Source: an uncultured Desulfobacula sp. (lineage in GTDB: Bacteria > Desulfobacterota > Desulfobacteria > Desulfobacterales > Desulfobacteraceae). From it: 64,000 bases of DNA. Position numbers and translations under genes: made by a program. Where the stretch lies: contig CAZWMY010000004.1 of the NCBI GenBank assembly GCA_964635025.1, positions 13,526 to 77,525 of the forward strand, given 5' to 3'. This document shows positions 10,795 through 32,211 of this stretch, piece by piece (within the stretch, counting starts at the first letter, position 1; every line of letters begins with the position of its first letter). The notes below the pieces were generated by a model that did not search any database, was not told where the DNA came from, and saw nothing but the letters and a program-made list of their open reading frames with translations.

Positions 10795-10800
10795 TTTATC

Positions 10801-11538: not shown

Positions 11539-11550
11539 AAAAAAAAGCCC

Positions 11551-12051: not shown

Positions 12052-12297
12052 CCCAGTCTTTCAGTCTCCCATTTTTGATGAATTTTCTATAGATCCAGAA
12101 CCTGGATACCATACCGGCAACAACACCTCAACAGGTTTTCAAAAAACGTTTTTGGTTATTTATGGTAAGTATTGGAATTAAAACATTTGATTACACACTA
12201 ATATTTACAATAATTAACCGATTTGCTTGACAGAAGAAAATTTATTTATTATCGCAGTCTTACAAATTTTTTAACCCAATTGACGAGGGGCGTTAAC

Positions 12298-15161: not shown

Positions 15162-15180
15162 AGCATGAGCAGGAAAAAGG

Positions 15181-16245: not shown

Positions 16246-17054
16246 TGCTGGAAATTAAAGCGGCCGGATTTTCCTATAATGCCAGAAACACGGTATTTGA
16301 CCATATCAATTTTCAGATCAGACCCGGCGAAATTGTGACGATTCTCGGCCCCAACGGCGCCGGAAAAAGCACGCTTTTAAAATGTATCAACCGGATTTTA
16401 ACCTTGAAAACCGGTGATATTCTGTTTAATCAGGAAAGTCTGTTAAAAATTCCCAGAAAAAAAATCGGCACCCTGATGGGCTATGTCTCCCAGTCCGAAG
16501 AAAGTACCTTTCCCTTTAATGCGCTTGAAATGGTGCTCATGGGCAGGGCTGCCCATCTGAATATCTTTCAATCCCCCGGTGACCGCGACCGGACCATTGC
16601 TGAAAGCGCCATGCAATACCTGGGGATAGAACATCTGTCGGGCAGACTATACAAGGACCTCAGCGGCGGAGAATCACAGCTTGTCACCATTGCCCGGGCA
16701 TTGTCGGCTGAACCCGGGGTCCTGCTCCTGGATGAGCCCACATCCCATCTGGATCTGAAAAATCAGATGACGGTGCTTAAAGCTCTGATCCAGTTGTCCA
16801 GGGAAAAAGGGCTGGCCGTCCTGATGACCACCCATCAGCCGGATCATGCCATGGTATTATCAGACCGGGTGCTCATGATGAAAATGGACGGCACCGCTCT
16901 TTTCGGAAAAACAGCCGACATCATTACCCCCAAAACCATACAGGATATCTTCGGCATTCGTGTTAACATCCTGTCAGCCGGTTCTGATACCGGTACTGTG
17001 AATACGGTGGTTCCGGACTGGGCAGCGATTTTATCGAAAAAAAAAGGATCATAA
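16245..17054 (+). CDS. ABC ATP-binding protein (FecE/BtuD type), importer 1
   Basis: Walker A is GPNGAGKST, the signature is LSGGESQ and Walker B is LLLDEPTSHLD. ATG 16245 overlaps the permease TGA; the track alternative start is 16236. Confidence 0.9.
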   Translation: MLEIKAAGFSYNARNTVFDHINFQIRPGEIVTILGPNGAGKSTLLKCINRILTLKTGDILFNQESLLKIPRKKIGTLMGYVSQSEESTFPFNALEMVLMGRAAHLNIFQSPGDRDRTIAESAMQYLGIEHLSGRLYKDLSGGESQLVTIARALSAEPGVLLLDEPTSHLDLKNQMTVLKALIQLSREKGLAVLMTTHQPDHAMVLSDRVLMMKMDGTALFGKTADIITPKTIQDIFGIRVNILSAGSDTGTVNTVVPDWAAILSKKKGS

Positions 17055-17721: not shown

Positions 17722-20418
17722 TCATACTTTTTCAATCCTAACCGCACAGGCTTTATATTCTGCGGTTTTGGAGATCGGGTCAAAGGCCGGGTTGGTCAGC
17801 CAGTTGGCATTCCCCTCCCGGAAATGGAAATCCATCCAGACCAGACCTTCCGGAACTTCACGAGTGATTCTTGCCTTGACTTCCACACCACCCCGGCGGG
17901 ATTCCACTTTGATTCGCCCGCCTTGTTCAATTCCCAGTTTTTTTGCATCTGCCAATGATATGTCGGCAACGCTTTCATTCAAGAGCTCATTTAATCCGTC
18001 GCAATGACCGGTCTGGGTCCGTGTATGGTAATGATACAGTCTGCGGCCGGTACTGAGAACGAGCGGATACTGCTCATCCGGAACCTCTGCCGAAGGCCGC
18101 CAGTCAATGGCGGAAAATTTGCCGAGACCGCAGGTAAATTGTCCGTCTGCATGGAGAAAGCAGGTGCCCGAATGTCTTTCATCCGTGCAAGGCCACTGTA
18201 GACCGTCTCCTTCAATGCGATCATATTTGATTCCCTTAAAAGAGGGTGCCATCAAGGAAAACTCGTTATCCCAGATCTCCCGGGCGCTGTTGGATTGCCA
18301 CTCATGGCCGAACCGTCCGGCGATCTCTTTGAATATCATCCAGTTGGGTTTTGCCTTGCCTGGAGCACGGCTGGCAGTACGAACCCGGCTGACACGTCGC
18401 TCGCTGTTGGTAAAGGTGCCGTCATTTTCACTCCATGCTGCAGCCGGAAGAATCACATCGGCAAACCGGGTGGTTTCGTTCTGGAAAATATCCTGAACAA
18501 CCAGAAAATCGGCTGATTCAAGGCAATGCTCTACGTGACGGATATCGGGCTCGGTATTGGCCAGATTTTCACCAAACACATAGAAGGCCTTGATTTTTTT
18601 ATTTACCAGTCCGTCCATCATATCCGGGATCATCATACCGACTTTGTCGGGAAGATTTTCAACTCCCCAAGCTTTACTGAATTTTTCCCGGACATCGGCA
18701 TCTATCACATTCTGATATCCAGGCATCACATTCGGCAATGCTCCCATATCGCATGCGCCTTGTACATTGTTCTGTCCCCGGAGCGGGTTTACGCCGCCGC
18801 TTTCAAGGCCGATATTTCCCAGCAGCATTTGCAAATTGGCAACGGACATGACATTATCCACGCCGCTTGTGTGTTCGGTGATCCCTAGCGTGTAGATAAC
18901 CATTACCGGTTTAATGGAAGCCAGTTTGCGGGCGAGTTCACGAATTGTTTCCGGTGGAATGCCGCAAATCTCAGAGGCTCTCTCGGGTGGGTATTCCTCT
19001 ACTTTTTCTTTTAGTTCTTCAAATCCGAACGTGCAGCGGTCGACAAATTTTTTATCATAAAGATTTTCTTTGATCAGCACATTCATGATGCCGTTTAACA
19101 GGGCGACGTCACTGCCGACTTTCAAGGGGATATGCATGTGGGCAAAGTCAACGAGCTTATGGGCGCGCGGATCGGCCACGATCAGGGTCGCCCCATTTTT
19201 GACTGCATTCTTTACAAACGTGGCCGCCACAGGATGGGCTTCCACCATATTGGAGCCAATAACGAAGAACATCTTGGCGTTTTTAAATTCACAGAAGGAA
19301 TTGGTCATTGCGCCTGAACCAAAGCTTGCCACCAGACCGGTGACAGTCGGAGCATGTCAGGTACGGGCACAGTGGTCAATATTGTTGGTTTTGAACACAC
19401 TCCTGAAAAGCTTTTGCATGTTGTATGAATCTTCATTGATACTGCGGGCGCAACTGACACCTGCCACCGAATCCGGTCCATGGGTTTCGATGGCTTCCCT
19501 GAATTTTGAAGCAACCAGGTCCAGTGCCTCATCCCATGAGGCTTCCATAAAGGTTCCATTCTTTTTGATCAAAGGGGTTGTGAGTCTTTCCTTGTCATAA
19601 ATAAAATCATAACCGAACCGGCCTTTGACGCAGAGTTTTCCATGATTCGGCTCTGCATTTTCAACACCCGTAACCCTGATAATTTTTCCCCGGTTCACAT
19701 GCAGCCAGATCTGGCACCCCACACCACAATAGGGGCATGTGGACCGGATTTTCTTTTGTTCCCAAATCCGGCCCTTGCCTTTGGATTTTTTCTCGGTCAG
19801 GGCGCCTACCGGACAAGCCTGAACACATTCGCCGCAAAAGACGCAATCGCTTCTGGGGTCCATCAGGGGGCTGTCATACGCAGTGATGATACCCGTCTGG
19901 ACGCTGCGGTAACCAAAGTCGATGGCATTGTTCACCTGGATATCATTGCATACCTGGACACAGCGGCCGCACAAGACACATTTGGACGGATCACGGATAA
20001 TAAAGGGGTTGGCATCATCAATGGCAGGATGTTTTACATCAGCGCTGAACCGGGGTTGCTCGATGCCGTGTTCATACGCCAGATTCTGGAGGGTGCAGTT
20101 GCCGTTGGCCTCGCATACCATGCAGTCATGTTTTCCGTATGCCAACAAGAGTTCAATGCTGATTTTTCGGATCATTTGGACTTCAGGCGTATCGGTTTTT
20201 ACAACCATCCCGTCTTTTGCAGGCGTGTTGCAAGCGGTCTGCGGCCTTTTGTTTCCATTGACTTCCACCATGCACACCCTGCAGGTAGCCGTTGGTGTAA
20301 CCTTTCCATAATAGCAGAGGGTCGGGATACGAATGCCGTTTCGGGAAGCTGCCTTAAGGACGGTATCTCCGTCTTTGAATTCATACTCGCTGCCGTTAAT
20401 AATAATTTTTCGACTCAT
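17722..20418 (-). CDS. fdhA: Selenocysteine-containing formate dehydrogenase alpha subunit with N-terminal 2Fe-2S/4Fe-4S ferredoxin-like domains; Sec encoded by TGA at 19357..19359
   Basis: Track ORFs 19357..20418 and 17722..19332 are in frame. The junction reads [32 protein letters not shown]. The N-terminus carries a 2Fe-2S motif (TCRVCMVEV), two CxxCxxCxxxC motifs (CVLCGRCVQVC, CVFCGECVQAC) and CPYCGVGC. Confidence 0.9.
19328..19356 (-). promoter_or_regulatory. SECIS-like element of fdhA-2
   Basis: A 12-nt spacer (CATGCTCCGACT) follows the TGA. Next comes the hairpin GTCACC-GGTCT-GGTGGC. The geometry and GGUC loop are identical to fdhA-1. Confidence 0.65.
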
Positions 20419-20481
20419 TCAACACCTTTTAATTCTCTTATAGATTGAGTTAACAATTCATAAACCTTAAACAATCAGATT

Positions 20482-20505
20482 CGATATGGCATAAAAAACA
20501 TATCG
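20482..20505. promoter_or_regulatory. ModE-box-like palindrome upstream of fdhA-2
   Basis: Sequence is CGATATG-gcataaaaaa-CATATCG. The palindrome extends to TTCGATATG...CATATCGAA (20480..20507). It lies about 63 nt upstream of the fdhA-2 ATG. Confidence 0.55.
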
Positions 20506-20649
20506 AATGTTTATCACTCGGTTTATTGATTGTCAAAGGGAAAATTAGCAACCTTTTTTTAGGAAAAAAGCGACAACCGACTTGGCTTACCGCTGTTGAA
20601 TGTGCTTGTGGCTTCTTCTTTTAAATAGGTTGTTTCCCAAAATGGTTTT

Positions 20650-21471
20650 TTAGTTCCCATCATTGGTGTACCTCGCTTTTGCCTTGACTTCTCCTCCGGC
20701 AGGCAGGTCGTTCCAGTTTACAAAATGCGTTCGGTTTAGGTAGAGCAACCGGATAATCTCAGCCTTTCCTCTCCTTTTCACAAGAGCTTTTGTCTCCTTG
20801 TACGCCTGAAGATAGGCTTTATCTTGGTCTTCACAGCCGGCCAGATCGTTCCACATATCTTCCAGAGAGTATCCGTCTGCCCTGAAAATGTCCTTTACAA
20901 ATCCGGCTTGAAAATTGGGGGTTACATCGGTCATGATCAGCATTGCGAGGCCTTCTTCCAACCACATGGGGACATCATGATTCTCCTTGCGTTTCATGGT
21001 AAACGGAGTGGAGCGGGAAATATATCCGACAAAATGGTGGGTAATTTCGTGCGCCAATATTGCTGACAGGCGGCTTTTATCGGCATTTTTGCCGCCTGAT
21101 AGCGGCGAATCAAGAAGAATAATATTTACACCATTCCGGATCCCTGGGGCGCAAGCATAGCCCTCACCGCAGGGCATGCATGTCATGTATTGAAGGTCAG
21201 CTACCGCAGGCGCCATCCAAAGCTCGATGGCAATGTCGCCTCGATAATCAAACCAGTCTTTAACGAACGCATACATATTCAAAAACAATTTGCTTACCGA
21301 TGCGATTGCCGATTCATCCGGTTTACCGTAGCAAATACTAAGATGGCTTGTCACCAAGTGTTTTTCCGTGATGCCCGGAGATTTTTCAAAACGCTCACAA
21401 AGATATTGCGTCTTTCGAAGGTTCAATCTTTGTTCAATCACGGAGTCCATGTTGTCCAGGCTTTTGTTCAA
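20650..21471 (-). CDS. Cytoplasmic MA-clan (gluzincin, Peptidase_MA_2-like) zinc metallopeptidase; last gene of the importer-2 operon
   Basis: It carries the HEXXH motif (ILAHEITHHF) and a downstream Glu motif (PMWLEEGLAML). There is no signal peptide. The start (21471 or 21450) overlaps the DUF364 stop. Confidence 0.65.
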   Translation of the reverse strand: MNKSLDNMDSVIEQRLNLRKTQYLCERFEKSPGITEKHLVTSHLSICYGKPDESAIASVSKLFLNMYAFVKDWFDYRGDIAIELWMAPAVADLQYMTCMPCGEGYACAPGIRNGVNIILLDSPLSGGKNADKSRLSAILAHEITHHFVGYISRSTPFTMKRKENHDVPMWLEEGLAMLIMTDVTPNFQAGFVKDIFRADGYSLEDMWNDLAGCEDQDKAYLQAYKETKALVKRRGKAEIIRLLYLNRTHFVNWNDLPAGGEVKAKARYTNDGN

Positions 21472-22279
21472 TCACTATACGCTCGGCATATTTGTCAAGA
21501 AAATGATAGCCTGAGCCTCCGGTTGATAGAATCTCCAGCAATCGGTCCGGCTGCGTCACGACCACTCCGCCGACTACCGTAACGCCTCTTTTAAAAAGCG
21601 GTTCCGGCAACGCACTTGCCGTAGGACCCATGACGGCGATCACAGCACCGGGTTTTGCAGCAGCCAGGATGCCTTCCAATGTATGATTGATCAGTGTGAC
21701 ACCCGTAATAATCAAAATATCTGCCTGGTTAATAATTTTGCCTGAACCTTCTGCCGGGATAAAGTGCGGCATTTCGTCATCGGTCAGCGTTTCCGGTTCC
21801 TGTTCAATAACCCACCAGGTTCCGCCGCGGGCCTTTAAAGCATGAAGGGTGGGAACAAAGGCACCCACAACAGCAACTGATTTTTCAAGCGGCATTTTTA
21901 CCGCATCCTGGGCATCCATTTTTTTTGTTATGGCATAATCTCCCGTTACCCCGTTTTTCCAGCATCCAGCACTCAGAGCATTCAGGGTTGCAATGGCCAC
22001 AGCCGTTTTGATTGGCTCATCAGAAGACAATCCAATGAGAACCTCTTTTACCGGCATGCCGTTCAGGTTTTCAGGGTTAAAGATTCGTCCTGCCGAACTG
22101 GGGCAGCAGACAGCCTTGGGAATCGACTTAACAGGAGTATAACATAACCCGCCGAAACCATTGGAAAGCTTAACTCCGGTGAAAAAAAGCCCGATAACGG
22201 CTTTTTCAATGGTCAGGTGGTTAAAGGCTTTCCCTGTTTTTTCTTTCACAAGATCAGATGTTTCTTCAAGGATTTTCAT
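21434..22279 (-). CDS. DUF364/DUF4213 protein (enolase-N-like plus Rossmann-like; 'putative heavy-metal chelation' family)
   Basis: 281 aa. It reads FFTGVKLSNGFGGLCYT, AVAIATLNALS, KSVAVVGAFVP and ADILIITGVTLINHTLEGIL..AVMGPTASALPEPLFKRGVTVVGGVVV, the pattern I associate with PF13938+PF04016. Confidence 0.75.
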   Translation of the reverse strand: MKILEETSDLVKEKTGKAFNHLTIEKAVIGLFFTGVKLSNGFGGLCYTPVKSIPKAVCCPSSAGRIFNPENLNGMPVKEVLIGLSSDEPIKTAVAIATLNALSAGCWKNGVTGDYAITKKMDAQDAVKMPLEKSVAVVGAFVPTLHALKARGGTWWVIEQEPETLTDDEMPHFIPAEGSGKIINQADILIITGVTLINHTLEGILAAAKPGAVIAVMGPTASALPEPLFKRGVTVVGGVVVTQPDRLLEILSTGGSGYHFLDKYAERIVIEQKPGQHGLRD

Positions 22280-22322
22280 TTTTTCTCCAAAATAAAAATT
22301 TTAGGCAATTATTTTTAATGGA

Positions 22323-23396
22323 CTATTTCCGGTCTATTGCCTGCCGCATGCCTTTGTTGCCGAGAATTTTTCGGGTCATGGCTTCATCCAGGTGAAGACT
22401 GAAAAAGGTTTGATAAAATCCTGCCATTTCTTTTTTCAGGTCAATGTCTGAAAAAAGATCGGGGTAAACGGTTTTTGCCGTCCAAAGTATGGCAAGCGGG
22501 GTTTCAAGACCGCCCGGATGCCCCCATCTGGAGATGCCGACAGGGATGGGGAATACTTTTTTGTCCTGTACCGCTTTGATGGGGGCCCATTTTTTGTCGG
22601 TCAGGATTTCCTGATCCACCCCGTCTTCATTCACGATGATGACATCCGGATTCCAGATCAGGATCTGTTCTATGTCTGCAAAGCTTTTATCCCCTTTGCC
22701 GTGCAAAGACTCTCCCACGGAGACATTGAGGACGCCCGCGGCTTTTGTCCATTCGGCTTCAATGGTTCCGGGGGCATCGGTTCTTCGGGATTCGTTGATG
22801 GAATGGTATAGACGGATTTTCTTTTCTTTTGGAATAAGCGCGGTTCTTTTGTCGACCTTGTCAATGATATCCCGGTAATACCGGGTATAGGCAAGGGCTT
22901 TTTCATGCCTGCCGATGAGTTTGCCCATCATTTCAATGGTGGTCATCTGTTCTTCCATGGTGTTGTAACCGGCAGTAAAATAGGGAAGATTGAACTGGTC
23001 CAGCTTTTTGATTTCCGCTGGTATGGCAGCGGTTTCGGGTTTGAGGAACACGATATCGGCCTTTGTTTTTAAAAGTGCTTCAATGTTGATGCTGCCTCCG
23101 TTTGAAGGGGTCGGGATATCTTTAATTCCCGGCACAATCTGATGCAACAGCACATCTTTTTTTAAACCATTAACAATGGCGACCATGTCTTCTCCTCTTC
23201 CCAGCATGGTCACGACATGGCCGCAGAACGCATAGAGGCAGGCAATCCGTTCCGGTATCCGGGGCAGGGTCAGGGGTCTTCCGGTATAGTCCGTGACCGT
23301 GACGGCATCAGCACCGGCTGCCGGGGCGAAAAGAAAAAGGCTGATGAGAATCTGGAAAAAAATCAGGTGTGTAAAAAGACGGTTGGTTTTATGCAT
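22323..23396 (-). CDS. Periplasmic substrate-binding protein, FecB/BtuF type, importer 2
   Basis: The signal peptide is MHKTNRLFTHLIFFQILISLFLFAPAAGADA. Motifs are KADIVFLKP, KKIRLYHS and WNPDVIIVNE. Confidence 0.85.
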   Translation of the reverse strand: MHKTNRLFTHLIFFQILISLFLFAPAAGADAVTVTDYTGRPLTLPRIPERIACLYAFCGHVVTMLGRGEDMVAIVNGLKKDVLLHQIVPGIKDIPTPSNGGSINIEALLKTKADIVFLKPETAAIPAEIKKLDQFNLPYFTAGYNTMEEQMTTIEMMGKLIGRHEKALAYTRYYRDIIDKVDKRTALIPKEKKIRLYHSINESRRTDAPGTIEAEWTKAAGVLNVSVGESLHGKGDKSFADIEQILIWNPDVIIVNEDGVDQEILTDKKWAPIKAVQDKKVFPIPVGISRWGHPGGLETPLAILWTAKTVYPDLFSDIDLKKEMAGFYQTFFSLHLDEAMTRKILGNKGMRQAIDRK

Positions 23397-23398
23397 TG

Positions 23399-24247
23399 TT
23401 ATTCATCCTGTCTGTGATTCATGGTTTGTATGGGGATAATGTGTTTGATGGTGCCCTTACCCGGTATGGCAAGGGCAATGACCGAGGTTTTGACATTGTA
23501 ATAACAGGATAGATTTTCTTCGGTCAGAGCCATGGATGGAGAACCGGAAATGTGAACCCTCTGATGGTTCATAAAGGCGACCTGAACCGGGATGCCCTCA
23601 TTTTCAAAATAAAAGGCGTGGTTGGGGAAATGGGTGGCCATGACAAGGGTCAGGTTTCTTTCTTTAACGAGGCGGGCAATGGTTTCCATCACAATGAGTT
23701 CATGTCTGAAATCCAGATGGGCAGTGGGTTCATCCATGATAATCACCGGGGTGTCCTGGATCAGGGCCCGCATGATCATGACAAGTTGGGTTTCCCCGCC
23801 GCTGAGAAGGGTATAGTCCCGATTTGTCAGATGAGAAAAGCCAAAGGAATCAAGCAGGTTTTCAACCCTTTTAATATCGTCTTCATCCGGCGAAGCATAA
23901 AACGAAGTATACGGGGCTCTTCCCATGACCAGTACATCCAGGACGGAAAAAGAAAAATGACGGCTATGTTTCTGGGGCACATAGGACATGGTTTGTGCAA
24001 TCTTTTTGGGTGAAAGCCTGTCAGAAGGCTGGCCAGCCAGGAAGACCCTGCCGGTGTCAAGTTTATGAATCCCTAAGATGCAATCAATGAGGGTGGTTTT
24101 TCCGCATCCATTGGGGCCCAGGAGACAAAGGATTTCCCCTTTTGAAACGCTCAGGTTCACTGATTTGAAGATCAGGCTGCTGCCAAAGGAAAAAGCTCCA
24201 TTCTCTATTGTAATGAGGCTTTTGTTTTCTGTAAGGTGCCTTACCAT
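23399..24247 (-). CDS. ABC ATP-binding protein, importer 2
   Basis: Walker A is GPNGCGKTT, the signature is LSGGETQ and Walker B is IIMDEPTAHLD. The start overlaps the permease stop (ATGGTAA). Confidence 0.9.
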   Translation of the reverse strand: MVRHLTENKSLITIENGAFSFGSSLIFKSVNLSVSKGEILCLLGPNGCGKTTLIDCILGIHKLDTGRVFLAGQPSDRLSPKKIAQTMSYVPQKHSRHFSFSVLDVLVMGRAPYTSFYASPDEDDIKRVENLLDSFGFSHLTNRDYTLLSGGETQLVMIMRALIQDTPVIIMDEPTAHLDFRHELIVMETIARLVKERNLTLVMATHFPNHAFYFENEGIPVQVAFMNHQRVHISGSPSMALTEENLSCYYNVKTSVIALAIPGKGTIKHIIPIQTMNHRQDE

Positions 24248-25253
24248 TCACGGCCCTTTGTTTTTTTCAGCAGATAAATAAAAAACGGTCCGCCGATAAG
24301 GGAGGTTAAAATTCCGAGAGGCATTTCACCGGTGCTGATGAGCCGGCTGATATCATCGACAATAACGAGGAATGCTGCTCCTGTGCAAAAAGCACCGGGA
24401 TGAGGTCTTTATTGTTATTTCCGATCATCATTCTTCCCATGTGGGGCACCACAAGTCCCACCCATCCGATGACGCCGCTGACACAGACAGCCCCGGCCGT
24501 GGCCAGGGTGGCGCAGACAATGATAAAGTTCCGGTTCAGGTTGACATTGATGCCGAGGGAATGGGCTTCCTTATCCCCCATGGCCAGAATGTTCAGACGC
24601 CAGCGGATCATCATGAGCCCGGCAGATCCTGCAACCATGGGAATGCCTGCGGTCAGGATCTGGCTGTATTCAGCCCTTGAGAGGCTTCCCATGAGCCAGA
24701 ACACAATGGCAGGCAATTGGTCGTAAGGGTCGGCCACATATTTAAGCAATGAGATGAGGGATGAAAAAACAGAACCCACAATCACCCCTCCAAGGACCAG
24801 GGTGATGGCCTGGGTAGAGGAGGTCAGCCTTCCGATGAAAAAGCACAGGAAAACAGCCAAAAGACCGAATCCAAAGGAAAAAGGATATACATAAAAAAAA
24901 TTGTCAAACAGGATAAGGGCCAATGCAGCGCCGAACCCGGCCCCGGAGCTGACCCCCAGCATGCCTGAACTGACCAGGGGGTTCCGGAAAATCCCTTGAA
25001 ACGCAGCCCCGCTCACGGCAAGGCTGCCGCCCACCAGGGCGCCAAGAATGACCCTGGGCAGCCGGACATAAAGAATGACGCTAAAATGTGTGGCATCAAT
25101 TTCCCGGCCGGTAAAGGGAGATAAAAGAAGGGTGATGATATCCGGAACAGATACCGGATACCGGCCCTGAAATATGGAAATAAAAATAAGAACCAAGGGC
25201 AATCCTGAAATCAGGATATAAAATCGTATCCGGTTTATCCGGGTTCGGTTCAA
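24241..25253 (-). pseudogene. FecCD-family ABC permease, importer 2, with an apparent 1-nt frameshift near 24383..24400 (or an assembly error at an A5/T5 run)
   Basis: Track ORF 24306..25253 (TTG start) loses the family consensus after ...DLIPV. A second frame continues with TGAAFLVIVDDISRLISTGEMPLGILTSLIGGPFFIYLLKKTKGREW and ends at 24241. That continuation matches the C-termini of the two paralogous permeases with no gap. Confidence 0.6.
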
Positions 25254-25999
25254 TATGCTTTTGCTTCCTTTTTGGTTATGGTCCGAAAAGGGATGCCGGT
25301 ATGTTCGATATCCTCATTGGCGGTTACAACAACTACCTGTTTATGGCCTTTTCGGACGGTTTTTGTTTTTTCCGATCCGATATGGACATGGGAATCAATG
25401 GGCAGGCCTTCACCGGCTTCAGTCACTAGTTGGTCGATAAAAGGATAGGTGCAAAGTTTTTCAACGCTGACAATATCGCCCGGCTGCCCCAGGTGATACC
25501 ATCCCCTGTAACGGCCGTCATTTCCGGAAAGTCTCAGCCCGATACCGGCCAGGGCCCCGACAACCCCCTGGCCTGTTCCGCCGTGTTCCGACAGATGGAC
25601 ACCGGTTTTCTCAGCAAGGGCATAGGCTGCAGATTTGGAGGATATTTTTATTTTGGCGTTTTTCCCGAATTCGATAAGGGCCTGATGGTCAAGGCTTTCC
25701 GTTATTTTTGCCACGCAAAGCCCGGGATCAGAGCCTTTTTCCGACCGGGTTTCAAGAAAAGCGGCCATCAGCTCAATAATGGGCTCAATGGCTCCCTGTT
25801 TCAGGGTTAATTCAAAACACATGGAAGAATTGTGGGAAGTATAGGGGATATCCTCGTGGACAAAAAGCTGGTGACGGCTGATGGCGCTGGTTTCAGCCAG
25901 CCCTTTTTCCTTCAGTATTCCGCACAGTCCTTCCACAAGCCAGCCGGTTCCCCTGGTCCCGGGCATATCCGTGTCATCAATGCAAACCAAATAATTCAT
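25250..25999 (-). CDS. Hypothetical cytoplasmic protein; motif order is reminiscent of the N-terminal kinase-like (TCKD) domain of archaeal TiaS
   Basis: 249 aa. It reads MNYLVCIDDTDMPGTRGTGWL ... IPYTSHNSSMCF ... DPGLCV ... GTGQGVVGALAGIG. The resemblance to TiaS (IDDTDS..G.CTTYL ... G.IGA.AA.G) is from memory only. It sits between the TBDR and the permease with a 12-nt gap and a 4-nt overlap. Confidence 0.4.
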   Translation of the reverse strand: MNYLVCIDDTDMPGTRGTGWLVEGLCGILKEKGLAETSAISRHQLFVHEDIPYTSHNSSMCFELTLKQGAIEPIIELMAAFLETRSEKGSDPGLCVAKITESLDHQALIEFGKNAKIKISSKSAAYALAEKTGVHLSEHGGTGQGVVGALAGIGLRLSGNDGRYRGWYHLGQPGDIVSVEKLCTYPFIDQLVTEAGEGLPIDSHVHIGSEKTKTVRKGHKQVVVVTANEDIEHTGIPFRTITKKEAKAY

Positions 26000-26011
26000 T
26001 TTTATCCTTTT

Positions 26012-27991
26012 TTAAAAACTCACCCGTACACCGGCATATCCTGTGCGTCCTGCTCTTGGAAGCCTGTAAGATTCTTCATAGTCTTTATCAAAAAGATTAT
26101 CCACACCCAGATAAAGGAAATAATTATCGTTGTAGACCTTTTGCTCCAGCTTGAAATTTACAAGGGAATAATCATTTAATTTACCCTTTCGAAAGGAATC
26201 CGAATAAAAATACTGGTCGGCAACATGCATGAAATCTGCATACGCCGTCAACCCGAAACCCCATGTATAATCCGCATCAACTGAAAATTTATGTCTCGGC
26301 CGGTATTGAAGTTCGTCTACCAGGGTACCGCTGGATTTGTCCTTGGAATCCATATACGAATAATTAAAACCAATGGTTCCATTCTCAAGGATTTTTTTGG
26401 AAAGGCGGGTTTCAAATCCTTTGAATTGATATTGTTGGTTGTTCTCATAAAAATTGGTGGTATTATTTTTCTCAATATAATGCTCAACATCATTCTGGAA
26501 AAATGTCAGGTCCAGTTCCATATCTTCAAAAAGCTTCTGTGAAATCCCGGCCTCATAATTTTGGGACTGTTCCGGTTTCAGTGTGGTTCTGCCCGAGGTG
26601 GGGTCATAGAGCTGCTGAATGGACGGGAACCGGATTTTTTTAGCATAGGATGCCCGCAATAGTGTCGAGTCGGTAAGTTTCAGGCTGCCGCCCACCATAT
26701 AGCTTCCCTTGTTTTCGTCATTGCCGACATCTTTTATCTGCCAGTGGTGACTGTAGCCCGTGACAATATCCAGCTTGGAAAAAAATTGAATCCTGTATTC
26801 AAAGGCGGCCGAGTAAATATTCAAATCATAATCATAATGATACGGAACAGCGGCTCTGTTATTGACCAGCACGGTATTAAGATCGGATGTGTAATTGTCT
26901 TTTTCCCCGGAGAGTGAAAACACAGCTTCACCGGACGATTCAAAATCAACGCTTGTCTGAAGGGTAGCGCCTTTGACGGATGTCTCATCCGAGTTTGTAT
27001 AGTTGTTTCTGTTTCTGATGGTGCTATAGGTGTTGTTATCGTATCTGGCAAAGTCCTGATTGTAAGTATTTGCAAAGGCCCAACCCCGGAACCCAAAGAT
27101 ACCTTTTGGTTGATAGCTCATGGAAACCTGGCCTGAAAGGGTTCCGAAATCTTCTACTCTGTCGTATTTTGGGGCTTTATAAAAAGGATCGGAAGCAATG
27201 GTTGTGGTTGAAGGGATTCCGTATTCACCGTCTGAGCTTTCAATGGTCAGGCCCATTTCAACCTCATCATTCACTTGGATTCCAAGATTACCGAAAAAGC
27301 TGAGCCGCTCATCATCACTGTTGTTCCTGGTTCCGCCGTTCTCAAATACAGTTGCCTTGAAATCACGGGAAAGCCTGTACCCGGCCGAGTCGGTTCTGTC
27401 TATGCCGGCAAAAAAATTGGTGGTTTCATCACCGCCTGAAATATTGGCTTTGCTGTAATAATTCCCCCGGCCGTCTATTTCACCTGATGCGTTCATATGA
27501 AGCCCTTTGGTTCCTTGCTTGGTAATGATATTGATCACACCGGCAAGCCCCCCCTGGCCATAGAGCACGGAATTGTTGCCATAGGATACCTTGATTTTGG
27601 AGATATTATCAGTGGAAATGATGTGGGGATCAAACTGACCGTCATAGGTTGAATTGATGGGAATCCCATTTAACAACAAGATGGCATGTCTGCTTCGAAA
27701 TCCTCGTATATTGATCCTCGGTGTACCGGCGCCGCCGGTTGTCACATCTATTCCCGGCAGCAATTCCAATGCCTTATCAAGGGTTTTGGCATTTCTTTTC
27801 TCAATATCCTTATCCGTGATTTCCAGAGCCGGAATGGTTTTGGATCCCGGCATATCTGCCGATATGACAACTTCACCAAGGGAATAGGCTTTTGTACCTC
27901 CTGTGTTTTTTTCATCAGCCGTTGCATATGAAAAGCTTAAACATAATATGATTAAGAAGCATAAAAGCCGGTTTAATTTTGCCAATCTCAT
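26012..27991 (-). CDS. TonB-dependent outer-membrane receptor (659 aa, BtuB/small-TBDR size class)
   Basis: It has a signal peptide, the TonB box LGEVVISA and plug motifs (LPGIDV, IRGF, SVLYGQGGLAGVINIITK). The C-terminus reads GRTGYAGVRVSF, ending in an aromatic residue. Confidence 0.9.
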   Translation of the reverse strand: MRLAKLNRLLCFLIILCLSFSYATADEKNTGGTKAYSLGEVVISADMPGSKTIPALEITDKDIEKRNAKTLDKALELLPGIDVTTGGAGTPRINIRGFRSRHAILLLNGIPINSTYDGQFDPHIISTDNISKIKVSYGNNSVLYGQGGLAGVINIITKQGTKGLHMNASGEIDGRGNYYSKANISGGDETTNFFAGIDRTDSAGYRLSRDFKATVFENGGTRNNSDDERLSFFGNLGIQVNDEVEMGLTIESSDGEYGIPSTTTIASDPFYKAPKYDRVEDFGTLSGQVSMSYQPKGIFGFRGWAFANTYNQDFARYDNNTYSTIRNRNNYTNSDETSVKGATLQTSVDFESSGEAVFSLSGEKDNYTSDLNTVLVNNRAAVPYHYDYDLNIYSAAFEYRIQFFSKLDIVTGYSHHWQIKDVGNDENKGSYMVGGSLKLTDSTLLRASYAKKIRFPSIQQLYDPTSGRTTLKPEQSQNYEAGISQKLFEDMELDLTFFQNDVEHYIEKNNTTNFYENNQQYQFKGFETRLSKKILENGTIGFNYSYMDSKDKSSGTLVDELQYRPRHKFSVDADYTWGFGLTAYADFMHVADQYFYSDSFRKGKLNDYSLVNFKLEQKVYNDNYFLYLGVDNLFDKDYEESYRLPRAGRTGYAGVRVSF

Positions 27992-28155
27992 TTCCCTTTT
28001 TCTCCTGAGTTCAAAGTTATAAATTAGTCATAATATAGCCATTAAGGTTGTGAGTTAATCATAGAGGTAATATTTTGTCAATCTTGCATAAAAAAAATTA
28101 AATCATGAAAAATTTTGATGATTATTTACCAAATATAACGATTATTAACTGTATG

Positions 28156-28187
28156 TGTTGGGGCTGTTGTCGCAGACAGCCCCAACA
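28156..28187 (-). terminator. Strong GC-rich hairpin 10 nt downstream of the TupA-like gene (terminator-like, without a clear U-tract)
   Basis: Sequence is TGTTGGGGCTGT-tgtcgcag-ACAGCCCCAACA, a perfect 12-bp stem. Confidence 0.5.
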
Positions 28188-28196
28188 ATGGATTGA

Positions 28197-29063
28197 TCAT
28201 GTATTATACGGCCAGACAGGGTAGAACCAGGGAAGCCCGGATTCAGCTCTTCCAAAATCATTCATAAAATCCTGGATCTCTTTTGAAAGCATGAAATCCG
28301 AAAGGGCACGGGCACCTTTATCATTTGAATCAGGAAAAATCTTTGGGTTGGCCTCCATTACAATATAAGGTCTTCTCATGGCAGGATCACCTTCAACCAT
28401 AATTTTCAAATTGCCTTTTTCTACTTTCTCAAAAAGGACCGGCATTCTGCCGAAAACCAGGTATGCATTTTTTTCACTTGCATATATCAACATATCTTTG
28501 TTTTTGTCACTTGAATCTTTGATAACCCAATCTCCAACCGGTTTGACGTGAATTTTTTTCCACAGGGTATTGCAAAGTTCCCTTGGTCCAACTCCCAATC
28601 CATCCAGGAATGTGGATTTGGTATCATAGATTTTCCGGAGGGCCTGTGCACCGTCTTTCATCCCCATGATTCCTGCGGGATCGGAAGGGGGACCGAGAAT
28701 AACCAAATCATTTTTGGCGCAAGGCCTCATATTGATACCATAGCCGTCAGCAACCAGGTCTGAGGTGATGTCGCCGGAATGCATGACAAGAAGATCCGCT
28801 TTGCCTCTTCTGAAGGGTTCGGATATGTCAGGCCGCGGCCCGGTTGACACAACAACGACCTTATAACCGGTTTTCGCTTCAAACCTTTTCGAAATTTCAG
28901 CCCACAGCCCAGTCATGGTCATGCCGCCAATGACACGAGCCCTGACCGTATCATTGTTTTTTGATGGTGCAGTCAGGGATTGTGTCATTGTGACAGGTTT
29001 CAACCCGCAGGAAACAAGGAAAAAGATACAAAATAAAAAACAGGGTAACAATTTTGCCTTCAT
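28197..29063 (-). CDS. Lipoprotein of the PBP_like_2 / TupA-like (tungstate/oxyanion-binding) family, orphan (no cognate TupBC nearby)
   Basis: ATG 29063 follows AAAGGAG. The lipobox reads MKAKLLPCFLFCIFFLVSC. The region TGLWAEISKRFEAKTGYKVVVVSTG...GKADLLVMHSG...NDLVILGPPSDPAGI parallels the TupA fold, but the position where I recall a TTTS anion motif reads GGMTMTG. Confidence 0.55.
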   Translation of the reverse strand: MKAKLLPCFLFCIFFLVSCGLKPVTMTQSLTAPSKNNDTVRARVIGGMTMTGLWAEISKRFEAKTGYKVVVVSTGPRPDISEPFRRGKADLLVMHSGDITSDLVADGYGINMRPCAKNDLVILGPPSDPAGIMGMKDGAQALRKIYDTKSTFLDGLGVGPRELCNTLWKKIHVKPVGDWVIKDSSDKNKDMLIYASEKNAYLVFGRMPVLFEKVEKGNLKIMVEGDPAMRRPYIVMEANPKIFPDSNDKGARALSDFMLSKEIQDFMNDFGRAESGLPWFYPVWPYNT

Positions 29064-29302
29064 GCTGATGGAACTCCTTTTTATCAATTGTTTCAGATTA
29101 GCAAGGGCATCTTTTTCCTTGCTTACTTTTTTTTGGATAATAGAAAAACACGATTGGAAAGTCAATTATGGAAATTGATTGATATGGTTTGTAATAGTCA
29201 TATTTGGTTATTTTTTATCAAATTATCAAAGTATTCTTGACAGCACGGACTAAAAACTCTAATTCCATATCCCTATACAATAACTCTGCAGGAACATATA
29301 AA

Positions 29303-30145
29303 ATGAATATGATTTTGGATCAGGCGTGTCTGTTTTTGAATCAGGAACTCCGGGAGACCCCAGAGATCCGGGAAATCGTTATCAATCCGAATTTTACAGG
29401 CGTACTTCTGGAAAATGAGGCCATGGGCATGGCCATGAACATCCGGAAAGGACCCGGCAATGAAAAGGAAGGCCCTGTCACTTCCATTGAGGATCTGATC
29501 GGCATTGACGGTCTAAAAGGGTTGGAACGGCTTGAAAAAGCTGCCGATCCCCTGATGCTCTCCGTAAAGGTCGCCTTGATCAATGCTTTGTCAAAACCCT
29601 TCATGACAAAGGAATATCTGGAAGCCAGGGGATATGGAACGGCCCAGGGCCGGGATAATTATTCTATCAAGGAAATGGTAAAAGACAAGACCGTGGTGAT
29701 CGTGGGATTCGGTGGCAATGTCACCAAGATAGCAAGCCGGGCGGCCAAGGTGTATGTCACAGAATTGGAACCGGAACGGTTTTATTCAAGGGTCATCAAT
29801 AAGACAGGGGCATCAATGGGGCCATTTTGCGCCACCCTGGTTCATGCTAAAGATGCGGCACCGTATTTTCAGAAAGCTGATGCCGTTGTCCTGACCGGCT
29901 GTACTTTGGTTACACAGACCATGGAAGAAATCCTCGTGCAATGCCAGGGGAAAAAGGTGTTTATTTATGGGGTTACTGCCGGGTTTTTCCCGGAACCCTT
30001 GTTTGATATGGGGGTTGATGCCATCGCCACTTCCATTGTGACGGATTCATCCAAAATGATGGATGCCTTAAAAAATTGCGGCCCCATGGTGGAACGGTTT
30101 TTTTCAGAATCCTGTCAGGAGCTGTTTATTCAGAAAAAGAAATGA
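29303..30145 (+). CDS. DUF364/DUF4213 protein, second paralog; first gene of the importer-3 operon
   Basis: It reads NPNFTGVLLENEAMGMAMN, SVKVALINALS, KTVVIVGFGG and ADAVVLTGCTLVTQTMEEIL..IYGVTAGFFPEPLFDMGVDAIATSIV. ATG 29303 is preferred over the track start at 29204. Confidence 0.75.
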   Translation: MNMILDQACLFLNQELRETPEIREIVINPNFTGVLLENEAMGMAMNIRKGPGNEKEGPVTSIEDLIGIDGLKGLERLEKAADPLMLSVKVALINALSKPFMTKEYLEARGYGTAQGRDNYSIKEMVKDKTVVIVGFGGNVTKIASRAAKVYVTELEPERFYSRVINKTGASMGPFCATLVHAKDAAPYFQKADAVVLTGCTLVTQTMEEILVQCQGKKVFIYGVTAGFFPEPLFDMGVDAIATSIVTDSSKMMDALKNCGPMVERFFSESCQELFIQKKK

Positions 30146-31185
30146 TCAAGAATAGTATAAAAACAACAATAATTTTTCTATGTGCAATTGTTTCCCTTTT
30201 CATGCCCGCCATTGTGTTTGCAAATGAAACCAACACGCGCACCATCACCGATATGACCGGGCGAAAGGTGGTGATTAAAAATCCCGTGAACCGGATCATT
30301 ACCACATTTAAACCGGCGAGTCTTTGTGTGCTTTCCCTGGGGCTTGAAAAAAAGCTGGTTGGGGTGGACAATTCTACCCGGCAGGACCGGCTGCAATTAG
30401 AAGTATTTCCCGAAATCGCTAATCTTGCAGGGGTGGGCACCAAAGCCATAGGGATCAATTTTGAAACCCTGGTTTCACTGAAGCCCGATCTTGTCATCCT
30501 TTTTTCTCAAAAAGACGGTCTTTCCGTTTCAGACCGCCTTTCAGCCATGAATATCCCTTCCATTGTGATTTTGCCTGAAACATTCGGCACCTTAAAAGAG
30601 TCCCTGCGGGTGATTGCCGAGGCAGCAGGAGAACCTGAAAAATCCCTGAAAGCTGAAAAGCTCATGGATGGGGTCATCCATCTTGTGGCACAGCGGCTTT
30701 CCGGACTTTCAAATGGAAATAAGAAAACCGGGTATTTTGCATCTGCCCTTGGGCTTTTCAACACCACAACGGGAAATATGATTGCCAATGAGATTTTTGA
30801 TGCAGCCGGGATCAAAAATGTATCAAGCCATTTGTCAGGGTATTTCCAGGATATTTCCCCTGAACAATTGGTGAAATGGAATCCGGATATCATGGTGCTG
30901 TCCCAGCATTTTAAAAAAGGAGAGGCCCAGCGGCTTTCCGATAAAGCCTTAAAAGAAATCAAAGCCGTATCCAATAAAGCGGTTTACCGTTGCCCGTCAA
31001 GCCTTGCACCTTGGGATTTTCCTTCCCCCATGTCGGTTCTGGCCACCCTTTGGATTGCCCAAAAGGCATATCCGGAAAGATTTTCCGATATTGATATAAA
31101 AGCAAAAGCAGATGAATTTCACCAGCAATTGTTTCAAAAAACCATGACCCAAATGGGCGGGACCATCAGTGATACGGTGGATTAA
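30142..31185 (+). CDS. Periplasmic substrate-binding protein, FecB/BtuF type, importer 3
   Basis: There is an ATGA overlap with the DUF364 stop. The signal peptide is MIKNSIKTTIIFLCAIVSLFMPAIVFANE. Motifs are KPDLVILFS and WNPDIMVLS. Confidence 0.85.
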   Translation: MIKNSIKTTIIFLCAIVSLFMPAIVFANETNTRTITDMTGRKVVIKNPVNRIITTFKPASLCVLSLGLEKKLVGVDNSTRQDRLQLEVFPEIANLAGVGTKAIGINFETLVSLKPDLVILFSQKDGLSVSDRLSAMNIPSIVILPETFGTLKESLRVIAEAAGEPEKSLKAEKLMDGVIHLVAQRLSGLSNGNKKTGYFASALGLFNTTTGNMIANEIFDAAGIKNVSSHLSGYFQDISPEQLVKWNPDIMVLSQHFKKGEAQRLSDKALKEIKAVSNKAVYRCPSSLAPWDFPSPMSVLATLWIAQKAYPERFSDIDIKAKADEFHQQLFQKTMTQMGGTISDTVD

Positions 31186-32211
31186 ATGAAAACCGCCCGG
31201 TCTTTCAGGACAATTATTCTTCTTCTCCTGGCTGCCCTGGTGCTTGCGTTTATCCTGTCCATTTTCTCCGGCCGGGTGGCCATTGGATTTTTTGATATGA
31301 TGGCTATTTTTTCAAAATTTTATCGGGACTGGGATGGAGCGGGCAGCTTTATTCCCAATGAATTGGTCTTCTTATGGATCAGACTGCCAAGATGTGTCAT
31401 GGCCGTTCTTGTGGGGTCAAGCCTGGCCGTGACCGGTGCCGTCTACCAGGCCCTGTTCAGAAATCCTCTGGTTTCACCGGATATTCTCGGGGTATCGGCC
31501 GGATGTACGTTTGGAGCGGCTCTTGGCCTTGTTCTGTCGTTTAATTCATTTGCATCTGTTCATCTTTTGTCGTTCGGGTTCGGGCTTCTGGCCGTTGCCT
31601 TGAGCGTCGGGCTTGCAAGACTCATTTCCATAAAACCGGTCATCATTCTGGTTCTGGCCGGTATGGTGGTATTGTCGTTTTTTAATGCCCTGCTCATGGT
31701 GGTAAAATATTTTTCAGACCCTTATGATCAATTGCCCACCATTATTTACTGGGTCATGGGGAGTTTGAGCCGGGTCACCTGGGACAATGTTCTGATCATG
31801 ACCCCTTTTGTGACGGCAGGCGTATTCCTCTTCATTAGTTTCAGTTTCAGACTCAATATTCTTTCCCTGGGTGATATCCAGGCCAAATCCCTAGGCATGA
31901 ATCCTTCTTTTTTCCGCATGGTCCTGATCACGACAAGTTCATTTATGGTGGCGGTTTCAGTGGCTACCTGCGGTCAGATTTCCTGGATCGGGCTGGTCAT
32001 TCCCCATCTGGCAAGAACCCTTGTGGGGCCTGAGCATGAAAAAATGGTCCCGGTAACAGCCTTGCTGGGAGGGCTGTTCCTTCTGACTGCGGATTCTATT
32101 GCCAGGAGTGTTTCTTCAGCCGAAATCCCGGTTGGGATTATCACCGCCCTGACCGGGGCCCCGATTTTCGGCTGGTTCATGTTCAAAAACCGGAGCAGCG
32201 GATGGATCTGA
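31186..32211 (+). CDS. FecCD/BtuC-family ABC permease, importer 3
   Basis: 341 aa. It reads RLPRCVMAVLVGSSLAVTGAVYQALFRNPLVSPDILGVSAG and IPVGIITALTGAPIFGWFM. Confidence 0.9.
   Translation: MKTARSFRTIILLLLAALVLAFILSIFSGRVAIGFFDMMAIFSKFYRDWDGAGSFIPNELVFLWIRLPRCVMAVLVGSSLAVTGAVYQALFRNPLVSPDILGVSAGCTFGAALGLVLSFNSFASVHLLSFGFGLLAVALSVGLARLISIKPVIILVLAGMVVLSFFNALLMVVKYFSDPYDQLPTIIYWVMGSLSRVTWDNVLIMTPFVTAGVFLFISFSFRLNILSLGDIQAKSLGMNPSFFRMVLITTSSFMVAVSVATCGQISWIGLVIPHLARTLVGPEHEKMVPVTALLGGLFLLTADSIARSVSSAEIPVGIITALTGAPIFGWFMFKNRSSGWI

Follow-up and report, generated by a model that had tools for sequence, protein, structure and literature searches.

The stretch of DNA analysed here, referred to as the window, comprised 64,000 nt of contig CAZWMY010000004.1 (positions 13,526 to 77,525; assembly GCA_964635025.1) from an uncultured Desulfobacula sp., and the system in question was an operon on its minus strand, running from nt 27991 down to nt 20650, which probably serves the acquisition of tungsten (W) or molybdenum (Mo). 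The first gene (nt 26012-27991) encoded a TonB-dependent outer-membrane receptor with Plug and TonB_dep_Rec domains, and the second (nt 25250-25999) a cytoplasmic protein of 249 aa resembling the kinase-like domain (TCKD) of the archaeal tRNA-modifying enzyme TiaS in profile, Foldseek and motif comparisons, hereafter the TCKD-like protein. These were followed by genes for a MolB-like type II ATP-binding cassette (ABC) permease, which was frameshifted (nt 24241-25253, with the listed open reading frame [ORF] at nt 24306-25253; FecCD, tblastn and PDB matches), a MolC-like ABC ATPase (nt 23399-24247; ABC_tran and PDB matches), and a MolA-like class III periplasmic binding protein (nt 22323-23396; Peripla_BP_2 and PDB matches). 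The last two genes, both variable accessories, encoded a DUF4213+DUF364 protein designated DUF364a (nt 21434-22279; Pfam and PDB 3NPG) and a small cytoplasmic metallopeptidase-like protein of the gluzincin type, MA clan (nt 20650-21450; motif, fold and a sub-threshold Pfam match). The start of the peptidase gene in the database gene call was the ATG at nt 21450, giving 266 aa, and not the TTG at nt 21471.

Seven minus-strand genes had been delimited here by a first-pass annotation made from the sequence alone, and ORFs were found exactly there; what that annotation missed was the frameshift in the permease gene, two paralogous transporter operons, and TonB-ExbBD genes elsewhere in the window. 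Going from the receptor to the peptidase, the junctions other than that between permease and ATPase were a 12-nt gap, a 4-nt overlap, a 2-nt gap, a 43-nt gap, and a 17-38-nt overlap. No convincing intrinsic terminators were found within the operon, and a hairpin after the peptidase gene did not stand out from shuffled sequence (z = -0.4); the seven genes are inferred to be co-transcribed. Signal peptides were present in the receptor and the binding protein, whereas the translations of the TCKD-like protein, DUF364a, and the peptidase had none, as had been noted before for these three proteins.

The receptor matched the Pfam Plug domain (9e-22) and the TonB_dep_Rec barrel (2e-29), and its N-terminus carried a signal peptide and a TonB-box-like sequence, GEVVISA. 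Against all NCBIfam models of siderophore, B12 and heme receptors it scored 43-153 bits, compared with cut-offs of 223-1200. The permease matched Pfam FecCD (1e-71) over profile positions 3-267 of 311 only, since a frameshift within five consecutive T residues (T5, nt 24387-24391) cuts its ORF short; a T6 would restore the frame. The last 52 codons run on in another frame to about nt 24241, where the stop codon overlaps the ATPase start, and in tblastn the orthologue from locus L082 aligned at 90% identity over 290 residues and then at 88% over the last 52 aa in the other frame. The restored product is a MolB-like protein of 337 aa, and the odd 58-nt gap between permease and ATPase in the listed ORFs is thus due to the frameshift, which is either an assembly error, a real inactivation yielding a pseudogene, or a phase-variable site.

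When compared with solved structures, the frameshift-corrected permease matched HI1471 MolB best (2e-70), followed by HmuU (3e-50), FhuB (3e-47) and BtuC (1e-34). The ATPase (ABC_tran, 2e-29) likewise had HI1470 MolC as its top match (1e-41), with FhuC and HmuV at about 1e-25, and the binding protein (Peripla_BP_2, 1e-14) matched 4OVK (2e-30), MolA HI_1472 (3e-27), CeuE (1e-13) and BtuF-type proteins (1e-5). Judged by these matches, the ABC part of the operon is of the MolBC-A type and not a generic FecBCD importer. MolBC-A is a known type II importer of molybdate and tungstate (PMC4031551, PMC4245157).

Searching the PDB with the 249-aa sequence by itself returned noise only, and the Pfam TiaS_TCKD score of the protein (2.4e-3) was under the Pfam cut-off; a family profile was required. 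With a profile built from 20 family members, residues 1-157 matched 3U02 (3e-5) and three TiaS entries (4-6e-5). An AlphaFold2 (AF2) model computed with the family alignment had a predicted local distance difference test score (pLDDT) of 83, and its top nine Foldseek matches in the PDB were all TiaS or 3U02 (E 5e-9 to 3e-5, probability 1.0), so that the likeness to the N-terminal part of TiaS suggested by the first-pass annotation was borne out at the level of predicted fold. D8-D9-T10-D11 was kept in 78 of 79 family members, position 18 was Thr in 61 of 79 and Ser in 17 of 79, and the alignment to TiaS was gap-free across the stretch from DDTD to position 18. DDxD is the catalytic motif of TiaS, and position 18 corresponds to the residue at which TiaS is reported to autophosphorylate (Thr18; Terasaka and Osawa, 2011). 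The protein is nevertheless not a TiaS: the OB and zinc-ribbon domains are missing from it, and it scored 22.6 bits against the NCBIfam TiaS equivalog NF040849, for which the cut-off is 600.

The TCKD-like family comprised 3632 homologues in a set of 5.8 billion proteins, forming 735 clusters at 50% identity, and its genes were found at at least 591 loci in GTDB representative genomes. Members were mostly from Desulfobacterota, with others in Geobacterales, Firmicutes, Kiritimatiellales, Balneolales and Burkholderiales, and the closest named relatives were from Desulfobacula and Desulfotignum, in keeping with a placement of the window in the Desulfobacteraceae. Database entries are annotated as hypothetical, as DUF1743 or, wrongly, as agmatidine synthetase. 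Searches of the literature on DUF1743, on TiaS together with Mo storage, and on agmatinylcytidine together with Mo/W found no link between this family and a metal.

For comparison, 80 loci around TCKD-like genes were taken from GTDB species representatives and their neighbours labelled. The order receptor, TCKD, MolB, MolC, MolA was present in the Desulfobacterales loci L004, L005, L007-L009, L012, L014, L015 and L018, as well as on two metagenome contigs, L082 and L083. A rearranged core was observed in L010, L013, L024, L026, L046, L048 and L062 and in Kiritimatiellales L060, while in Firmicutes (L064-L066, L073) the order was MolB, MolC, MolA, TCKD, without a receptor. Receptor orthologues adjoined the TCKD gene in 30 of the 80 loci. 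The conserved unit is therefore the set of receptor, TCKD, MolB, MolC and MolA, kept in synteny across phyla well beyond chance, and the TCKD-like protein is the most conserved partner of the transporter.

Homologues of DUF364a and of the gluzincin, on the other hand, were found within 10 kb of the TCKD gene in none of the 80 loci (blastp 1e-6, phmmer 1e-2), and a paralogue, DUF364b, lay near it in L002, L003 and L006 only. A conserved seven-gene unit, as the first-pass annotation had envisaged, was dropped as a candidate on this ground; linkage to the transporter held for the TCKD-like gene but not for the genes of DUF364 and the peptidase. The operon of L004 stops after the binding-protein gene, and that of L082/L083 ends with a purple-acid-phosphatase-like gene. 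Divergent from the latter lies an operon of DUF364, an Asp-rich repeat protein, ExbB, ExbD, TonB, MolA, MolB, MolC and a receptor. The window has counterparts of the Asp-rich protein, ExbB, ExbD, TonB and phosphatase genes at nt 1553-6554, so that it and L082/L083 have a common but shuffled gene set.

A transporter or storage gene was located within 5 kb of the TCKD gene in 66 of the 80 loci. The commonest such neighbour, found in 28 loci, was a homologue of the Mo-storage protein MoSto (MosB 1e-62, MosA 6e-44). The loci concerned were L023, L025, L027, L029-L030, L032-L033, L035, L037-L038, L040-L043, L045, L048-L049, L053-L054, L056-L059, L061, L070-L071, L076 and L078. These homologues were single genes, widespread in Desulfobacterota and often accompanied by a MOT1 transporter or a PadR regulator; such a one-subunit MoSto of anaerobes appears to be unstudied. 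MOT1-family molybdate transporters stood beside TCKD in 11 of the 80 loci, and L025 contained a string of TupA-like, TCKD and MoSto-like genes. A receptor with MolBC-A-like or energy-coupling factor (ECF) importers was observed in about 35 loci, about a dozen having the ECF type with a receptor, whereas 14 of the 80 had miscellaneous contexts without recognised neighbours. On the family tree, loci with storage, MOT1 and importer contexts are intermingled, and this speaks for a single general function.

Molybdenum cofactor (Moco) riboswitches (Rfam RF01055, 64-78 bits) lay ahead of TCKD-containing operons, on the same strand, at five loci: L064 (nt 2598-2715), L065 (nt 421-537), L066 (nt 2638-2757), L073 (nt 6294-6410) and L074 (nt 9783-9900). 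These come from Thermincola, two other Firmicutes, one unclassified bacterium and Geomonas. The riboswitch precedes operons of Big_5, MolB, MolC, MolA and TCKD in L064 (Thermincola), L066 and L073; it heads a gene string starting with TupA-like genes in L065, where a TupABC-like set and the MolBC-A-like/TCKD genes share it, and lies directly upstream of the TCKD gene in L074 (Geomonas). The matches covered 117-120 nt of a model of 135 positions, and the P3 stem was absent from each of the four alignments inspected (L065, L066, L073 and L074). The P3-less class of Moco riboswitches tracks tungsten-cofactor metabolism (Regulski et al. 2008, PMC2408646). These riboswitches were the strongest evidence for Mo/W. 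TonB receptors near Moco riboswitches in Pelobacter are already in the literature (PMC3543383).

Gram-positive Big_5 proteins, some with SLH anchors, were observed in the position held elsewhere by the TonB-dependent receptor (L064, nt 2890-6888; L065, nt 4880-6994; L066, nt 2934-3488; L073, nt 6480-7040; L072, nt 8493-9972). Their position suggests a surface capture step for the cargo.

DUF364a matched both of its Pfam domains well above the gathering scores, DUF364 (PF04016) at 4e-39 (133.9 bits versus 23) and DUF4213 (PF13938) at 3e-18 (66.1 versus 23.5), as the first reading of this gene had it, and its only match among solved structures was 3NPG, a DUF364 protein (2e-6). An association of DUF364 with transporters of Fe, W, V and Mo was published in 2010 (PMC2954201), and both MolBC-A itself and the link of DUF364 to Mo/W transporters are already known (PMC4031551, PMC2954201, bioRxiv 10.1101/2024.03.05.583561). 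A Methanococcus DUF364 gene within modABC is described in the literature as cofit with nifH, and the sole characterised DUF364 enzyme cyclises methyl-S-adenosylmethionine (methyl-SAM) to an azetidine amino acid (PMC12930334).

The peptidase scored below the cut-off of Pfam Peptidase_MA_2 (2e-5, 24.9 versus 32.4), but H134, H138, E165 and E166 were invariant in its family, comprising an HEXXH motif with conserved E135 and a downstream Glu, and its AF2 model (pLDDT 88.6) matched M1, M9 and M30 peptidases in Foldseek (E 3e-4, probability 1.0), which agrees with its earlier assignment to the MA-clan gluzincins. The family was small (73 clusters) and its contexts varied: 20 gluzincin loci of at least 5 kb had MolA-like genes in 6, GNAT acetyltransferases in 6, DUF364 in 4 and radical SAM proteins in 4. 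GNAT proteins were often neighbours of the small gluzincin or fused to it, as seen for P0322 and P0326, at L084 (nt 8838-11564), L085/L086, L090 and L094; at L084 the gluzincin adjoins a Pat-like CoA-ligase/GNAT protein. This association hints at an acyl or amide cycle rather than proteolysis.

A recurrent set was observed in L087, L090, L091, L094, L106 and L115, consisting of a radical SAM protein of about 600 aa, DUF364, GNAT, a methyltransferase and an FmdE-like protein, together with MoeA, MolA-like or ModABC-TOBE genes and a receptor; the window holds the same radical SAM protein, two GNATs and a methyltransferase at nt 9650-14067. DUF364 and the gluzincin are thus tied to the transporter loosely and not tightly, and are lineage-specific additions from a looser set of Mo/W accessory genes. 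Within the receptor, MolA-like, DUF364, gluzincin and MoeA cluster of L087, a protein of 582 aa with a tetrapyrrole-methylase domain and a faint Oxidored_molyb match was encoded at nt 10918-12666, which echoes the Pelobacter genome paper, where tetrapyrrole methyltransferases are next to ligand-gated channels.

Upstream of the receptor gene, an alignment of the regions from the window, L004, L005, L008, L082, L012 and L015 revealed a conserved promoter region (nt 28027-28081, minus strand) composed of TTGACA (nt 28076-28081), a 14-nt spacer, TG-a-TTAACT with the TG-extended TTAACT at nt 28053-28058, and a conserved 13-nt block, GCTATATTATGAC (nt 28027-28039), in the short 5' untranslated region. 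No Rfam family reached its gathering threshold anywhere in the window, a permissive search of nt 27900-29400 returned nothing credible, and riboswitches were also not found at seven orthologous loci of Desulfobacterales. A Fur-box scan allowing up to 6 mismatches gave no site at the operon promoter. The absence of a B12 riboswitch and a Fur box that had been remarked on earlier was therefore upheld by both scans.

The window as a whole was a Mo/W supercluster, whose genes of this kind included two formate dehydrogenases, a dimethyl sulfoxide reductase (DMSOR)-family enzyme, a xanthine dehydrogenase (XDH)-family operon, MobB, MoCF_biosynth, MocA-like and a TupA/ModA-family lipoprotein. Three paralogous MolBC-A-like systems were present within 21 kb. 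One lies divergent from the TCKD operon on the plus strand (nt 29204-33008) and encodes, in this order, a second DUF364 protein (DUF364b) and MolA-like, MolB-like and MolC-like proteins (Pfam; binding protein versus MolA, 1e-27); its counterpart in L082/L083, extended by ExbBD-TonB and a receptor, is likewise divergent from the TCKD operon. Another, also on the plus strand (nt 12223-17054), starts with a 614-aa fusion of radical SAM and PBP2, followed by MolA-like, MolB-like and MolC-like proteins (Pfam/NCBIfam; MolA, 3e-19). L090, L091, L094 and L115 combine homologues of the radical SAM protein, of approximately 600 aa, with DUF364 and the peptidase. A module at nt 1553-6554 (plus strand), identified by tblastn with L082 proteins and by Pfam, encodes an Asp-rich repeat protein, ExbB, ExbD, TonB and a purple-acid-phosphatase-like protein; since homologues of these genes sit inside DUF364/receptor operons in L082/L083, it likely energises the receptor. 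The Asp-rich protein had 601 aa, was DUF6802-like, and contained many DxDxDG-type repeats.

Adjacent to the operon, an orphan TupA/ModA-family lipoprotein with the lipobox LVSC is encoded at nt 28197-29063 on the minus strand (SBP_bac_11, 1e-12), and probably forms a separate transcript; a strong hairpin follows the gene at nt 28160-28183. It scored 58 bits (9e-16) against NCBIfam TupA, for which the cut-off is 400, and the same lipoprotein gene also preceded the receptor gene in L015 and adjoined TCKD in L025, L027 and L065. Directly downstream of the operon is a selenocysteine-containing formate dehydrogenase (nt 17722-20418, minus strand; Pfam) with an in-frame TGA at nt 19357-19359 in HCARTUHAPT. 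The ModE-box-like palindrome reported upstream of it earlier is present at nt 20481-20506 and belongs to a motif, TCG(A/T)TATG-N10-CATA(A/T)CGA, of which the window has 3 copies compared with 0.25 expected, each upstream of a molybdoenzyme operon; the other two are at nt 8708-8733 (second formate dehydrogenase) and nt 53153-53178 (XDH-family operon). Its geometry is presumably the same as that of the E. coli modA operator, and ModE-type operators are probably what these palindromes are. When all of the retrieved loci were scanned, five scattered matches resulted, one of them in L074 (nt 9960-9985) between riboswitch and TCKD, and the idea of a palindrome regulon across these loci was abandoned, as five matches are too few to define one.

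The alpha subunit of the second formate dehydrogenase is encoded at nt 6581-8700 (minus strand), with a listed ORF that starts at model position 135, and, like that of the selenocysteine enzyme, its gene appears to be split. The DMSOR-family oxidoreductase (nt 35612-37639, minus strand), the Moco genes (nt 46195-48363) and the XDH operon (nt 49332-53114) lie further along. Among relatives, L081 has ThiF, ThiS, MoCF_biosynth and MocA-like genes beside a DUF364, MolA, MolB, MolC operon divergent from TCKD, and MoeA is also found among the neighbours.

Taken together, these results make it probable that the locus is a W/Mo acquisition operon and not an importer of iron, heme or corrinoids. The link to Mo/W follows from four independent lines, namely the homology to MolBC-A, the partners of TCKD (Mo storage, MOT1 and TupA-like proteins), the riboswitches, and the surrounding genes; it is further favoured by the known link of DUF364 to Mo/W/V transporters, by the DDTD motif and Thr/Ser18 of the TCKD-like protein, and by the lack of a B12 riboswitch or Fur box. 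The guess of the first-pass annotation that the cargo is Mo/W rather than iron thus gained support from MolBC-A homology, from Mo-storage and MOT1 neighbours, and from Moco riboswitches at orthologous operons. As to the metal, we infer a leaning to tungsten, and the outer capture components suggest a chemical form beyond the free oxyanion. The TonB-energised receptor would carry the W/Mo species into the periplasm, the MolA-like binding protein would pass it to the MolB2C2-like type II ABC importer, and the cytoplasmic TCKD-like protein would then, using ATP, capture, activate or hand the metal towards storage or pterin-cofactor synthesis. By analogy with the chemistry of TiaS, this protein is proposed to use ATP in capturing or activating the metal or a pterin intermediate.

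Several observations weigh against this assignment. The cargo is assigned by guilt by association, and the use of ATP is predicted from motif conservation only. The top PDB match of the binding protein was not MolA but 4OVK, an uncharacterised structural-genomics protein; MolA itself binds molybdate weakly (PMC4031551), and the true ligands of the subfamily are therefore not secure. The rule that P3-less riboswitches denote tungsten is a published correlation and not a demonstration (PMC2408646), and the operon in the window has neither a Moco riboswitch nor a complete ModE-like box, with a half-site only at nt 28134-28141. For a small oxyanion, neither energised outer-membrane uptake nor the Big_5 surface proteins of Gram-positives would be expected, and both hint at a cargo in complexed form. 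With its frameshifted permease gene, moreover, this copy of the operon may be inactive.

The frameshift is the starting point of one rival explanation, in which the operon is a decaying copy, two paralogous MolBC-A-like systems do the work, and rearrangement placed the genes of DUF364 and the peptidase here with no functional coupling. Heavy rearrangement of the same gene set between the window, L081 and L082 would agree with this, as would the closest relatives (L001-L003, L081), in which a lone TCKD gene is divergent from a DUF364 operon. However, a single-base change in a homopolymer such as the T5 run is a common assembly error, the remaining operon genes are intact and 60-90% identical to their orthologues, and the promoter is conserved; decay is thus regarded as very unlikely. 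It is extremely improbable that the locus is an ordinary ferric-siderophore, heme or corrinoid importer which lies among Mo/W genes and carries three unrelated passengers. The Pfam labels are generic (FecCD, Peripla_BP_2, TonB receptor) and the best NCBIfam names were archaeal BtuC for the permease and corrinoid ATPase for the ATPase, both well below cut-offs, but every NCBIfam receptor, permease and binding-protein model was far under its cut-off, the E-values of MolB, MolC and MolA were 16-36 orders of magnitude better than those of HmuUV, FhuBC and BtuCDF, no cobalamin riboswitch or Fur box was found, and orthologues lie under Moco riboswitches.

According to the first-pass annotation, an organic W/Mo chelate ('metallophore') or cofactor precursor is imported, after which the TiaS-like protein activates it, the gluzincin cleaves it, and DUF364 passes the metal on. 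Bulky or bound cargo is suggested by the TonB-dependent receptors and their Gram-positive Big_5/SLH replacements, and another ligand is conceivable given the weak affinity of MolA for free molybdate (PMC4031551); in this genome, DUF364 and the gluzincin are packed tightly with the importer and TCKD-like genes, and L087, L091, L106 and L115 each contain gluzincin, DUF364 and MolA-like genes. What makes dismantling of such a chelate after import unlikely is that none of the 80 related loci has DUF364 or the gluzincin in the operon, closer relatives having a phosphatase-like gene or nothing in their place, that the ABC parts are closest to MolBC-A, an importer of a small substrate, the bare oxyanion, and that the TCKD-like protein also occurs with MOT1 and with homologues of the Mo-storage protein, systems whose substrate is the bare oxyanion and for which no chelate is expected. 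Cyclisation of methyl-SAM to an azetidine is the chemistry of nicotianamine-type metallophores. A locus for both synthesis and uptake, like the staphylopine/pseudopaline cnt loci, could be imagined on this basis, in which the azetidine or aminocarboxypropyl chemistry of DUF364, together with radical SAM, GNAT, methyltransferase, gluzincin and perhaps TCKD-like proteins, builds a secreted W/Mo binder that is then re-imported. The activity of the sole characterised DUF364 enzyme (PMC12930334), the set of radical SAM, DUF364, GNAT, methyltransferase, gluzincin, MoeA and receptor in the six loci named above (L087, L090, L091, L094, L106, L115), and EamA-type exporters adjoining the receptor in L004 and in the vicinity of DUF364 in L087 all point that way. 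The window, however, contained no EamA exporter (tblastn with the L004 and L087 EamA proteins) and no nicotianamine-synthase or opine-dehydrogenase domain in Pfam scans, the gene order of the set is not fixed and the set is shown by under half of the gluzincin loci, and TCKD occurs beside Mo-storage homologues without any of its genes, leaving the model distinctly unlikely. Salvage of Moco or a pterin was also considered as the cargo and set aside, because weak Foldseek matches to HPPK (E ~3e-3) and a 2010 'pterin' speculation for DUF364 were too thin.

Going beyond W/Mo acquisition as such, it is possible, and offered tentatively, that bacterial TCKD-like proteins represent a new class of ATP-dependent W/Mo trafficking enzymes, acting for example by oxyanion activation or by adenylylation or phosphorylation of a pterin intermediate and trapping the metal for storage or cofactor synthesis, and that anaerobes couple them to a hitherto unrecognised route of energised uptake, by a TonB receptor in Gram-negatives or Big_5 proteins in Gram-positives, which may take up a complexed, thio- or polyoxo-form. 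Within this proposal the cargo could possibly be bound to a SAM-derived 'tungstophore' produced by the DUF364, radical SAM, GNAT, methyltransferase and gluzincin set. The operon thus holds one component whose function may be entirely new. The earlier remark that no system of this composition has been described stands only in part, as MolBC-A and the link of DUF364 to Mo/W transporters are known, while the TCKD-like protein and the coupling to a receptor appear to be undescribed. No description was found in the literature of the TCKD-like family as a Mo/W component, of its coupling to Mo-storage homologues, of MolBC-A-like operons under a putative tungsten-cofactor riboswitch, or of a receptor-coupled Mo/W importer, none of which figures in the 2026 inventory of Mo/W proteins (PMC13144720).

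Formate dehydrogenases, aldehyde oxidoreductases and nitrogenase require W or Mo, which are scarce or sulfide-bound in anoxic sediments, and sulfate reducers must hold free molybdate low because it poisons sulfate activation. Inventories of Mo/W proteins at present name only ModABC, TupABC, WtpABC, MOT1/2 and MosAB (for example, Nat Commun 2026, PMC13144720). If the W/Mo assignment is true, what they miss is an energy-driven step at the outer membrane, a MolBC-A-type importer that is widespread and controlled by a tungsten-cofactor riboswitch, and a conserved kinase-like cytoplasmic partner, present at at least 591 loci, whose sole characterised relative modifies archaeal tRNA. It would also strengthen, on independent grounds, the case for the physiological role of MolBC-A in H. 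influenzae, which is debated, and provide the DUF364 and TiaS-like families with a concrete, testable context.

TiaS, the archaeal tRNA-Ile2 agmatidine synthetase, shares with the TCKD-like protein the N-terminal TCKD fold, the IDDTD motif and a hydroxyl at the position of Thr18, but has about 420 aa, including OB-fold and zinc-ribbon domains for tRNA binding that the 249-aa protein lacks. Its hosts are archaeal and its role is tRNA modification, whereas the TCKD-like protein occurs in bacteria, which use TilS, in a context of metal transport and not translation. An equally short architecture is found in PDB 3U02, a TiaS-like protein of 252 aa from Pyrococcus furiosus. DUF364a has the same DUF4213+DUF364 architecture as Dhaf4260 (structure, 2010) and the methyl-azetidinecarboxylate synthase Orf5 (2026), and the genome context published for DUF364 proteins, with Fe/W/V/Mo transporters, agrees with its own; Orf5, however, acts in a nonribosomal peptide synthetase pathway of Streptomyces, and DUF364a is distant in sequence from the solved members. 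MosAB of Azotobacter vinelandii, of which no homologues were found in the window, is an alpha/beta pair, whereas the TCKD neighbours are single-subunit genes.

Among the importers, ModABC, TupABC and WtpABC share with the operon the presumed metal, and a TupA/ModA-family lipoprotein gene adjoins it, but these are type I systems with a class II binding protein as opposed to type II and class III here; we know of no outer-membrane receptor for them. BtuB-BtuFCD and FecA-FecBCDE have the same three-compartment layout of receptor, class III binding protein and type II importer with TonB-ExbBD, although the operon has no B12 riboswitch or Fur box and its sequence kinship to them is much weaker than to MolBC-A. 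The MolBC-A system of H. influenzae (HI1470/HI1471/HI1472) is comparable in its class III binding protein, its FecCD-family permease and its link to Mo/W; it is described as a low-affinity importer of the free oxyanion, to which the operon adds a TonB-dependent receptor and a TCKD-like protein, both conserved, as well as DUF364 and a gluzincin.

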